64,000 nucleotides of DNA, from NCBI RefSeq assembly GCF_058153355.1, contig NZ_CM177019.1. One strand, written 5' to 3'. Under the pieces are notes generated by a model, which had not been told where the DNA came from, did no database searches, and was given only the letters and a program-made list of their open reading frames with translations. Below are positions 12,320 through 24,504 of this stretch, one piece after another. Position numbers and translations under genes: made by a program. How positions within the stretch are numbered: the first letter of the stretch is position 1; each line of letters opens with the position of its first letter.

Positions 12320-12460
12320 CGATCTGGATCACATTCATTAACAAAATGGTTGTAACCGTTTCCATTGCTGTGACTCGATTCACGAAGTCCTGAATTCAGT
12401 GCTGACAAAATAGCCGCCAGCAAGCAGGCATTTACTGCAATCTCATAACAGGTAGTGAAT

Positions 12461-13501: not shown

Positions 13502-13529
13502 CCGCTTTCAATCTGTGAGTGATTTCACA
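13496..13529. promoter_or_regulatory. mgl control region: GalS/GalR-type operator followed by a CRP site
   Basis: atgtaaccgctttcaat resembles the gal operator GTGTAAACGATTCCAC; tgtgagtgatttcaca (13514-13529) is a near-consensus CRP site TGTGA-N6-TCACA. Confidence 0.55.
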
Positions 13530-17455: not shown

Positions 17456-18691
17456 TTACAACGTTACCGGGTGTTCTTTCTCTCCCTTCTTAAACTTCAC
17501 TTCCCCAAGATCAATACAACCCACCGGGCAGACGTGACCGCAAAGCAGGCAACCCACACATTTCTCGGTATTACAATGCGGTGTGCGGGTTTTCTCGCTC
17601 CATTCCATCGCCTGGTGACCGCCGTCATAACAGGAAATATAACAGCGTCCACAGCCAACACATTTATCGAGATTGATGTTGGGATAGACAATATAACTGC
17701 GGTCTAAATCTTCCGCCGGAACAATATTGTGATTCGCCAGACCTACCATCTCCTGCAACGAATCAAACCCCTGATCGGCAAGATAGTGTGACAACCCGCT
17801 CGCCATATCTTCCACTATCCGATAGCCGTACTGCATAATGCCGGTGGTCACCTGCAATGTCGCTGCACCGAGCAATAAAAACTCTGCCGCATCTTCCCAG
17901 GTTTCAATACCGCCGATACCGCTAATCGGGAAATCGCGCAGCTCTGGATGGGTGCGCATTTGCTGAATAAAGCGTAGGGCGATCGGTTTTACCGCTTTAC
18001 CGGAATATCCGGAAATACTCGATTTACCGTTAACGATCGGCATACCAATTTTCTGATTAAGATCGATATTGGTGATGGATTTAACGGTATTAATCGCCGC
18101 AATGCCATCTGCGCCGCCGCGCTTCGCAGCCAGCGCCACTTCGCACATATCACCGATATTCGGCGTCATCTTCGCCAGCATCGGCAGCGTAGAACCACGT
18201 TTCACTGCCCGACAATATTTTTCTACCAGCTCCGGGCTTTGCCCGACATCACTACCCATCGCATGAGAAGTCATTTGCGGACAGGAGAAGTTACACTCGA
18301 TCATATCCGCACCAGCTTCTTGCACCAGGCGCGCCAGATCCTCCCACTGCTGTTCATTTTCGCCCATGATCGAGGCGATCAATACTTTGTCCGGATAATC
18401 TTCTTTCAGCCGACGCAGGGCGGCCAGATTCTCCTCCAGAGGATGTTCGGCAATCTGCTCCATATTTTTGAAGCCGATAAAACCGGTATCTTCTTTCACC
18501 AGATGATCAAAACGTGGTGAGACTTCGTTGGCGATAAAAAAGCCGATCGTTTTAAATACCACGCCACCCCAGCCCGTGTCGTAGGCTTTGGCGCACATCT
18601 CATAGCAGTTGCCTACCGGCGAAGAAGAGAGGCAGAACGGGTTGGGAAACTTCACGCCGCAAAAAGTAATCGAAAGATCTTTCGTTAACAT
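17456..18691 (-). CDS. preA: NAD-dependent dihydropyrimidine dehydrogenase subunit PreA (dihydroorotate-dehydrogenase-like, with 4Fe-4S ferredoxin domain)
   Basis: ORF with DHOD-like TIM barrel and C-terminal Cys clusters ([11 protein letters not shown]...[12 protein letters not shown]); start taken at [10 protein letters not shown]. Confidence 0.9.
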
Positions 18692-19923
18692 GAGCAAGCT
18701 CCCTCTAAATAGTGATGAATCGCCTCGGCGGCTTCTTTCCCGGTTTTCACGGCATAGACCACGGTTTTGTCACCCTCAACAATATCGCCAGCAGCAAAGA
18801 CTTGCGGATCGCGGGTCTGGTAATTTTGTGTATTGATGGTGTTACGCTGCGGCTCTAACTCCGCAAAGGCATCCAGTCTGGCATGCTGACCGACGGCGAG
18901 AATAATTTTATCTGCCGCCATCGTCAGTTCGCCCGGTAAGCGTACATGCTTAAACGTGACTTTATTGCCTTCCACGGCCACTGGTGTGAATCCATCGATG
19001 ATCGAAACGCCCAACTCCCGGGCGCTGGCAAACTCTTTTTCGCTTGCCGGAAACTCATCTAACTCTTCACGTGCTACGCAGGTTACCGCCTGACAGCCGA
19101 GAACTTTCAGCGTGCTGGCAACGTCCATCGCGACATCACCGCCGCCGATAATTAATGCGCTTTGTGGAATGCTGATATCGCCTTGCGCCTGGCGTGCACG
19201 TTGCAGGAAGTCGACGGCAATCTCAACGTCGCTATGCTCAAACAGCGGTAGCCCCGAACCGCTCGATAACCCCACGGTGACAAGTACTGCGCGGTTTTCG
19301 GCTTTCAGTTGCGCCAGGGTGAGTACTTTACCTATTTCGTTATTGCACTTAATGGTCACGCCCATTTTTTCAATACGGGCGATTTCTGCATCCAGCACCG
19401 ATTGCGGTAACCGAAATTGCGGAATACCGTTACACAGCCAGCCACCGGGTTGCGCTTCTTTTTCATAAATAGTGACGTCGTACCCCATATTTGTCAGCGT
19501 CACACTGGCCTGTAACCCGGCAGGGCCCGCGCCAATAATCGCTACCTTACCGAGCGTTTTAGTGCCTGGCTGATAAATTTCCATCCCGGTTTGTTGTTCA
19601 AAATCAGTGATAAAACGCTGTAAGCGCCCAATATCAATGGGATCATCAACACCGGCACGGGTACAACCGCTCTGGCATAATTTCTCCGTTGGGCAAATTC
19701 TGGCGCATACAGCACCTAAGGCATTATTTTCGCGAATTGTCTCGGCAGCGCCTTTAAAATTACGAAAGTAGATTGAGCGTATAAATTTCCCCGGATCGGT
19801 TTGTGCCGGGCAAGCCTGACTACAGGGAGCGTCGTGACATAATAAACAGCGAGAGGCTTCTTTAATCGCCAGTAAAGGCGTAAAAGCCGGAGTGAGTTCA
19901 TCCAGATAATTTTGTTGCGGCAT
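18685..19923 (-). CDS. preT: NAD-dependent dihydropyrimidine dehydrogenase subunit PreT (GltD-like FAD/NAD oxidoreductase)
   Basis: 412-aa ORF with Rossmann motif IIGAGPAGL and N-terminal Cys cluster; coupled to preA. Confidence 0.9.
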
Positions 19924-20108
19924 GTGATCTTCCTTAATGCTATGAGTAATTAAGGCGAACGCTAAATATACTCGTCATACTTCAAGTTGCATGTGCTGCG
20001 TCTGCGTTAGCTCACCCCAGTCACTTGTCGCCTTCCTGCAACTCGAATTATTTAGAGCATAAATATTGCGTGCTGATATTAAGGCTAAGCGTGTGGGGAA
20101 ATTTAAAC

Positions 20109-20124
20109 TGTGAAAGAATTCACA
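20109..20124. promoter_or_regulatory. Consensus CRP-binding site
   Basis: tgtgaaagaattcaca is a perfect TGTGA-N6-TCACA palindrome in the preT/yeiS upstream region. Confidence 0.4.
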
Positions 20125-20209
20125 AATAGCTGCGGTTCAGAATGTTATATCCGCAGCTTATTGACTGAAGTAATAATTATTCTCAATAATTAACAGGGGA
20201 GGGACAATA

Positions 20210-22245
<2,036 letters not shown>

Positions 22246-22304: not shown

Positions 22305-22320
22305 TGTGATCTGAATCTCA
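22305..22320. promoter_or_regulatory. CRP-like site in the cdd promoter region
   Basis: tgtgatctgaatctca (TGTGA-N6-TCTCA) upstream of cdd, a known CRP/CytR-controlled gene. Confidence 0.4.
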
Positions 22321-23501: not shown

Positions 23502-23604
23502 TTAATTCGTAAAACGTGCTACCGATCACATTAAGAATTCTCAGCATAGTTGAATTACAGGGAAGTAACATCGGGCGAGTGCCCAGTTCAGCACACTAAT
23601 TCTG

Positions 23605-24504
23605 CTATAAAAAGTGCAGAAACTGACTTAAAGCATAAGAAGGCGTTTCGTTATTACGCCAAAACACACCGACGCTGCCTTTCTGTTCAATCTTTGGCAG
23701 GTTGAGGATCACCAGTTGCCCCTGGCTGGCATAACGTTGCGCCAGGCGTAATGACAAAATAGAGATCATATTGCTGCTTTGTAACAGGTTGGTACTGACG
23801 TTCATCGACGCCGACTCAATCGTGTTTTCTGGCAGCATCACGCCGTGGTCTACCAGCGCATTATCAATGCTGATGCGGATGGGGGTACCTGTCGGCCAGA
23901 CTATCCACCGCCAGTTAGCAAGATCATTCCAGCTGAGGGTGGCGTATTTCGCCAGTGGATGCTCAGGACGGGCGACAAAGCATACCGGCTCGGTGTAGAG
24001 CACGCGATAATTCAGCGGCAGCTGCAACGCGCGACCGCCAATTCGCCCAACCACCACATCGATAGAACCTGCCAACAGATCTTGCAGCAATGGGGTCATC
24101 ACCTTCTCTTCGATATTCAGGTGTAGAGTTGGCATCTCCTTGAGCAAATGCAAAATCGCCTGGGATACGCAGTCAGTGGCGACGGGAGAACAGCCAATTT
24201 TCAGACTGCCGACCAGTCCACCTTGTTTAAAACGGGCCAGTTCATGTTGCGAGCGCTCCATGTCATTGATTAACCGCTGGGCATGTTGCAATAACAATCT
24301 ACCGCCTTCGGTAGGGCGTAACCCTTTGCTGTGCCGCTCAAAGAGTGTGAGGCCGATCTCATCTTCGAGTTGTGACAACCATTTCGACAGCGCAGGCTGG
24401 GTGATATTCATCATCCGCGCGACATGGGTCAGATTGCCCTGTTCACCCAGCGCCACCAGCATTTGCAGGTGATGAAGCTTTAGTTTCTGCGCCCAGTTTG
24501 CCAT
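23605..24504 (-). CDS. mhbR: LysR-family regulator of the 3-hydroxybenzoate/gentisate cluster (MhbR-like)
   Basis: HTH MANWAQKLKLHHLQMLVALGEQGNLTHVARMMNITQPALSKWL; divergent from the catabolic operon; start chosen at the Met preceded by GGAGG. Confidence 0.8.
   Translation of the reverse strand: MANWAQKLKLHHLQMLVALGEQGNLTHVARMMNITQPALSKWLSQLEDEIGLTLFERHSKGLRPTEGGRLLLQHAQRLINDMERSQHELARFKQGGLVGSLKIGCSPVATDCVSQAILHLLKEMPTLHLNIEEKVMTPLLQDLLAGSIDVVVGRIGGRALQLPLNYRVLYTEPVCFVARPEHPLAKYATLSWNDLANWRWIVWPTGTPIRISIDNALVDHGVMLPENTIESASMNVSTNLLQSSNMISILSLRLAQRYASQGQLVILNLPKIEQKGSVGVFWRNNETPSYALSQFLHFL

Follow-up and report, generated by a model that had tools for sequence, protein, structure and literature searches.

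The closest described system is the preTA (yeiTA) operon of E. coli K-12. RegulonDB lists a CRP activator site of yeiTA at -57.5 (ECK120035029), and the K-12 sequence of this site, TGTGAATCTTTTCACA, is copied in Table S4 of Shimada 2011 (PMC3105977). The same work reports a Genomic SELEX-chip peak for cAMP-CRP in the yeiS>/>yeiTA spacer of K-12, for which the box TGTGAAAAGATTCACA at 2.23195 Mb is given (PMC3105977, Table S3). CRP control of preTA was catalogued by 2011, and these two records make catabolite control of the operon established knowledge. Beyond Shimada 2011, nothing relevant was found in the literature that links preT or yeiT with CRP, cAMP or ChIP; crp or cya expression data for preT were not found in the searchable literature, and preT is absent from the ChIP-exo table of Latif 2018. 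In O157:H7, yeiT is up 2.1-fold at the growth transition in glucose minimal medium, which is consistent with CRP control but not specific for it. A σ28 SELEX peak designated 'yeiT' lies inside the gene and was set aside as irrelevant. The operon is of clinical interest for 5-fluorouracil, an anticancer drug that PreTA, as the bacterial dihydropyrimidine dehydrogenase, inactivates in the gut; the clinical preTA literature examined contains no information on CRP, glucose control or the promoter.

Two class II CRP promoters, those of mglBAC and cdd, are also close relatives in terms of architecture, and both are found in the 64-kb stretch of DNA that was analysed as a whole here (the window). The -10 hexamer is TATGAT at mglB (RegulonDB position -41.5) and TAAACT at cdd (RegulonDB position -42.5); both hexamers have an offset of 21 nt from the CRP box, and the two promoters served as positive controls. 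A different kind of described element is the ERIC (IRU) repeat, an imperfect palindrome of about 127 bp in its canonical form, which has a conserved core, inserts at TA and is present in dispersed copies. Known size variants include short forms with an internal deletion and long forms with an internal insertion of about 70–80 bp.

The window is E. coli DNA; among complete genomes, that of strain EC42405 comes closest. On the minus strand of the window, the gene order is cdd, sanA, yeiS, preT and preA, with a spacer of 286 bp separating yeiS and preT. The sequence-only reading had reported a perfectly symmetric TGTGA-N6-TCACA element, TGTGAAAGAATTCACA (tgtgaaagaattcaca), upstream of the preT-preA operon, and both the motif and its placement in this spacer are right. 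The features of the locus are:

20210..20449, minus strand: yeiS coding sequence, the co-directional neighbour upstream of preT
20109..20124, reading TGTGAATTCTTTCACA on the preT strand: core of the CRP box, TGTGA-N6-TCACA, assigned by exact match, matrix score and RegulonDB orthology
20106-20127: full 22-bp CRP site, with its centre at 20116.5
18685..19923, minus strand: preT (yeiT) coding sequence, the regulated gene
17456-18691, minus strand: preA coding sequence, 3' of preT and overlapping it by 7 nt

The motif corresponds to the cAMP-CRP activator site already catalogued for the preTA operon of E. coli, and the observation is right without being new. When the window is aligned with K-12, the same site appears at the same orthologous position in the spacer, with identical half-sites and flanks (CTATTTGTGAA...TTCACAGTTTAAAT) and the same TAGCCT block downstream; only the box spacer differs, being ATTCTT in the window and ATCTTT in K-12. 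With the variant in the window, the CRP box contains an EcoRI site (GAATTC). The box centre is located 85 bp 3' of the yeiS stop codon and 193.5 bp 5' of the preT ATG, while the distance to the ATG is 101.5 bp in K-12; in the window, a 93-bp ERIC repeat stands between the promoter and preT. The direct basis for the CRP site consists of the sequence, the orthology to K-12, the published in vitro binding of CRP to the K-12 spacer and the conservation across genera; what we infer is the class of the promoter, where transcription starts and whether ERIC has any effect. With high confidence, a cAMP-CRP activator site of the preTA promoter is the best explanation of the motif; a class II geometry, discussed below, is the preferred but less certain arrangement.

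The part of the yeiS-preT spacer that is free of ERIC occurs once per genome and is shared by 5,421 of 5,426 complete E. coli genomes. The window carries a rare allele of it: its 149-bp ERIC-free promoter segment (20064-20212) is matched at an identity of at least 99% in just five of the 5,421 genomes, most others being 90–95% identical and the K-12-type alleles 80–90%.

Exact TGTGA-N6-TCACA matches occur twice in the 64 kb, compared to 0.08 expected from dinucleotide shuffles, and a count of two was reached in 0 of 100 shuffles. The second exact match (13514-13529) has the same sequence as the mglBAC CRP site in RegulonDB. For scoring, a symmetrised CRP weight matrix was derived from 92 RegulonDB CRP cores (from Shimada 2011, Table S4), with yeiTA and mglBAC excluded from the training so that the test is non-circular. 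The preT box reaches 16.2 bits, which is the top score in the window and exceeds 98% of the training sites, and the known sites of cdd (15.4 bits), mglB (15.3 bits) and galS (12.8 bits) rank below it. The best scores of the shuffled windows had a mean of 13.3 (sd 1.4), with 16.5 as the top of 100. The next matches in the window, at 13514-13529, 22305-22320, 12369-12384 and 23515-23530, are all known sites, namely those of mglBAC (-41.5), cdd and galS and the dusC/yohJK SELEX site, which validates the matrix. The fifth score in the window, 12.1 bits for TGTGAGGCCGATCTCA at 24346-24361, was matched to no listed site.

A second CRP site is not found upstream of preT, the box being the single match with at most one mismatch within 700 bp. 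This differs from cdd, where a second CRP site and CytR are used. CytR co-regulation of preT, considered with cdd nearby, was rejected, as a TGCAA motif is present in some Citrobacter alleles only.

Conservation was analysed at preT loci that had been collected by a PreT protein search, i.e., unbiased with respect to the motif, with one genome per species. The search provided 19 enterobacterial loci from Escherichia (including E. coli, E. albertii and E. whittamii), Citrobacter and Pseudocitrobacter; 13 are of the Citrobacter type, one of them from a metagenome-assembled genome labelled Raoultella. When up to one mismatch is allowed, each of the 19 loci has a single box in the 700 bp upstream of preT, and this box is always perfect. 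When extra E. coli alleles are counted, all 24 alleles whose spacer is intact have a perfect box with invariant half-sites, and the box is also perfect in two further alleles, those of E. coli J31 and EFF60. In contrast to the half-sites, the box spacer occurs in five versions among the 24 alleles (ATTCTT, ATCTTT, ATCCTT, AACCTT and ATAGAT). The half-sites are under stronger constraint than the box spacer at the orthologous position, and this conservation across genera provides independent support for a CRP site. When 12 alleles without insertions, taken from the three genera, are aligned, four blocks stand out as invariant: CTAT-TGTGAA....TTCACAG around the box, GC-TAGCCT, CCTTAATT and CATTAAGGAAG, the last of which is the block of the ribosome-binding region.

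These data also bear on the idea of a chance palindrome without function. About 0.08 perfect cores per 64 kb would amount to a handful per whole genome, and a comparable matrix score was seen in one of 100 shuffled windows. However, both half-sites are perfectly conserved in three genera, while the box spacer and the flanks diverge, and CRP binding in vitro is published (PMC3105977). Conservation and SELEX data together effectively refute a chance origin, to which we attach next to no weight.

The palindrome could alternatively function as an RNA hairpin in the 3' region of sanA-yeiS, contributing to termination or stability instead of binding a protein. The neighbourhood of the box provides some grounds for this, because the box follows a conserved hairpin by only 3 nt:

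20128..20158, minus strand: hairpin AGCTGCGG-15 nt-CCGCAGCT, directly 3' of yeiS and 3 nt before the CRP box, identified by RNA folding

This yeiS hairpin is supported in E. albertii by a compensatory pair (CTGTGG/CCACAG) and replaced by a different hairpin at the same position in Citrobacter, and it is possibly the 3'-end structure of the sanA-yeiS transcript. The box itself folds as a short stem-loop, and conserved arms around a variable centre are also expected of a hairpin. Yet, the box stem comprises just 5 bp in most alleles and compensatory changes are absent, the arms are exact CRP consensus half-sites, and the K-12 spacer was selected in vitro by purified cAMP-CRP (PMC3105977). A terminator scan detected neither a terminator-like site at the box nor any intrinsic terminator in the spacer, the yeiS hairpin falling outside its definition with a 15-nt loop and the tail AUUUGUGAAU. 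Furthermore, the box follows the yeiS stop at a distance that depends on the genus (84–87 bp in Escherichia and 114 bp in Citrobacter), whereas the spacing between the box and TAGCCT is constant. A function of the palindrome as an RNA element is therefore very unlikely.

The sequence-only reading had offered a divergent transcript as an alternative target of CRP, and this part of it is not supported. yeiS and preT are co-directional, both being encoded on the minus strand, and a divergent gene is absent. CRP would instead have to drive an antisense transcript on the plus strand back into yeiS, for which the symmetry of the site would be suitable and for which a TTGACT-18-AATAAT sequence is present at 20161-20190, the sole promoter-like match on that strand. 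But one such match compares with 1.3 expected in shuffles, and the TTGACT hexamer requires an AGTCAA, which is absent from K-12 and other alleles. With its only candidate promoter not conserved, a CRP-driven plus-strand transcript is highly improbable.

For a cAMP-CRP activator site of preTA, the geometry of the promoter is the main question, and three further positions are needed to discuss it:

20082..20087, minus strand: TAGCCT, candidate -10 hexamer, starting 21 nt past the box
20074..20075, minus strand: start predicted from the geometry if the promoter is class II, with the CRP centre at -41.5 or -42.5
20059..20062, minus strand: equivalent of the K-12 b2146 5'-RACE end (-47 or -44), mapped by alignment and straddling the upstream junction of ERIC

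All six bases of TAGCCT are invariant in 12 sequences from three genera. Since only about one third of the columns between the box and the ribosome-binding block are invariant, we estimate the chance of six successive invariant columns at a prespecified position as about 0.001, treating columns as independent. The offset between the box and TAGCCT is 21 nt in 23 of the 24 alleles; one Citrobacter allele has 20 nt, and the additional E. coli allele EFF60 has 22 nt. The distance from TAGCCT to the ATG, by contrast, ranges from 64 to 268 bp. In a class II promoter, the -10 hexamer starts about 29.5 bp past the CRP centre, and this is where TAGCCT is found. The preT promoter thus resembles mglBAC and cdd in having a CRP box followed 21 nt on by a TAnnnT hexamer. 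It differs from them in its weaker -10 element, in which only three of six positions agree with TATAAT, and in that its class II start is predicted only. TAGCCT retains T1, A2 and T6, the most important -10 positions, as would be expected for an activator-dependent promoter.

An invariant TAGCCT at the same offset as the -10 hexamers of mglB and cdd favours the class II arrangement. The competing view is that the same CRP site activates from -57.5 (or -54.5), in a class I-like manner with CRP contacting the alpha-CTD, and that transcription begins at a downstream start in K-12. Besides its listing by RegulonDB, this view can draw on a 5' end of b2146 at -47 from the ATG, which was obtained with a gene-specific 5'-RACE primer and is given as 'b2146 -47 Tttactaaacgctcgccttaa' in Table S1 of Mendoza-Vargas 2009 (PMC2760140). 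When the leading TTT is trimmed, the 5' end becomes the A at -44. This base is 57.5 bp away from the box centre, and K-12 has a reasonable -10 element (TACATT) 7 nt upstream of it. By this arithmetic, the -57.5 of RegulonDB appears to rest on the Mendoza-Vargas 2009 end. In the published data examined, no experimental start was found at the class II position, the sole 5' end found for the promoter being 54.5–57.5 bp past the CRP centre and 13–16 nt downstream of the predicted class II start. Kim et al. 2012 list a 2-read start inside yeiS, 228 nt upstream of the yeiT ATG (K-12 2231827, U00096.2), which hints at weak read-through or an internal start.

Several observations speak against the downstream start. 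The authors of the RACE study did not determine 5'-triphosphate ends, so that primary and processed ends are not distinguished, and the poly-A tailing leaves the initiating nucleotide in a leading T run ambiguous (PMC2760140). The TACATT of K-12, i.e., the -10 element implied by -57.5, is not conserved: it is absent from the window, which has CACGCA like the EC8-type alleles, and Citrobacter contains a T-rich stretch of variable length instead. If the start is fixed relative to the ATG, the distance from CRP to the start would lie anywhere between about 55.5 and 79.5 in alleles without insertions, which is a poor fit to the face-of-the-helix dependence of class I activation. Class I sites occupy a fixed helical face at -61.5, -71.5 and so on, and a site at -57.5 does not lie on the canonical face defined by -61.5. 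Gaston et al. reportedly established in 1990 that class I activation depends on strict helical phasing. In addition, the empty ERIC site is where the K-12 RACE end maps, and the mapped position is the ERIC junction in ERIC-bearing strains. Because the K-12 -10 element is not conserved and the CRP-to-start distance would be variable if the start tracks the ATG, the class II arrangement is preferred over -57.5. From the sequence comparison, we consider class II somewhat probable and activation from -57.5 rather unlikely, with the remainder going to both promoters or neither. The comparison accordingly marks the RegulonDB position of the preTA site as probably mistaken, or at the very least as an assumption.

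What the sequence-only reading overlooked, while its assignment of CRP and catabolite control agrees with the RegulonDB entry, the SELEX-chip peak and the cross-genus conservation and was already known, is a repeat between the site and preT:

19969..20061, minus strand: ERIC (IRU) repeat of 93 bp, a form shortened by an internal deletion of 32 bp, inserted at a TA downstream of the promoter and upstream of the preT ribosome-binding region

The ERIC core AAGTGACTGGGGTGAGC is matched exactly, and the element is dispersed in the genome, with a median of 5 places per genome. In RNA folding, ERIC forms a long hairpin of its own and does not engage the ribosome-binding region. Rfam returned nothing above threshold over the spacer; the sub-threshold matches over ERIC are V_AS5 (23.6 bits with a gathering threshold of 96; 19971-20062) and CssrA (15.7 with a gathering threshold of 93), and the match to V_AS5, a Vibrio antisense RNA, probably reflects ERIC-like sequence in the family seed.

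The ERIC of the window is an ordinary member of its family in its palindrome, core, TA insertion and dispersed copies; distinctive are its place in the leader of a CRP-dependent operon and the six size classes that exist at one orthologous site. The same TA is empty of ERIC in K-12, EC8, E. whittamii and others, whereas it carries about 70 bp in E69, 125 bp in JNE131328, about 130 bp in E. albertii, 171 bp in MOD1-EC7003 and 203 bp in EC22, in line with the short and long variants known for ERIC. An ERIC-containing query was covered to at least 80% by 2,197 of 5,425 complete E. coli genomes (about 40%), although the 93-bp form with the exact spacer of the window is rare (17 records with an identity of at least 99%). 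All ERIC insertions are located downstream of TAGCCT, and the geometry between CRP and the -10 hexamer is therefore untouched.

A mechanism can be proposed on this basis. Under glucose scarcity with high cAMP, both TGTGA half-sites would be occupied by a CRP dimer that recruits RNA polymerase, and the preTA genes for the NAD-dependent dihydropyrimidine dehydrogenase would thereby come under catabolite control. In a class II promoter, CRP at -41.5 would substitute for a -35 element and act together with the weak putative -10 hexamer TAGCCT (20082-20087), with transcription predicted to start near 20075. The 93-bp ERIC would be transcribed from about +15 within a 152-nt leader, compared to a leader of about 59 nt in K-12, and under class II its presence should leave the CRP-promoter geometry undisturbed. 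A more far-reaching and tentative proposal is that -57.5 is wrong, that the class II box and TAGCCT drive preTA, and that the ERIC polymorphism (at about +15, 0–203 nt, in about 40% of E. coli) leads to differences in preTA expression between strains; as a whole, this may be true but is doubtful.

The site is no addition to the list of CRP targets, and it is of practical interest only indirectly. What the comparison contributes is modest: a footprint conserved across genera, a case for class II as opposed to the RegulonDB position, and an ERIC in the preTA leader that varies between strains. If class II is true and ERIC alters expression, then carbon source and strain background would both influence the destruction of 5-fluorouracil by gut E. 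coli.

The remaining spacer contains two other elements, one on either side of the promoter:

20171..20185, minus strand: Fur-like 7-1-7 box TGAGAATAATTATTA, with 2 mismatches to TGATAATnATTATCA and its centre 61.5 bp upstream of the CRP centre
19932..19955, minus strand: inverted repeat CCTTAAT-N10-ATTAAGG, the 3' arm of which overlaps the preT Shine-Dalgarno sequence AAGGAAG (19929-19935)

The stems of the CCTTAAT repeat are invariant and its loop is variable in 11 sequences from three genera, with a folding energy of -4.3 kcal/mol. One C-to-U change retains a G.U pair, and covariation is not seen among these sequences. The repeat could be a weak RNA hairpin that sequesters the Shine-Dalgarno sequence, or it could be a DNA operator. 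GCCTTAA as a repeated operator, with one copy in the TAGCCT block and one in the repeat close to the Shine-Dalgarno sequence, was considered and rejected, the spacing between the copies varying from 37 bp to more than 200 bp.

At the preT promoter, a Fur ChIP-seq peak specific to anaerobic conditions is reported, and Fur-dependent activation of preT was confirmed with a PpreT-lacZ fusion (Beauchene et al. 2015, PMC4676285). We infer that TGAGAATAATTATTA may be the site used by Fur, which would fit the published peak. The Fur-like box is located 61.5 bp from the CRP centre in 11 of 11 Escherichia alleles and 72.5 bp from it, i.e., one helical turn more, in Pseudocitrobacter and in 12 of 13 Citrobacter-type alleles; in the allele Cit_MGH106, the best Fur-like match is at 90.5 bp and has 4 mismatches. 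In a single strain, E. coli 23CRST030 (L026), an IS2 element interrupts the 5' arm of the yeiS hairpin some 27 bp before the position expected for the CRP box, and splits the Fur-like box from the promoter.
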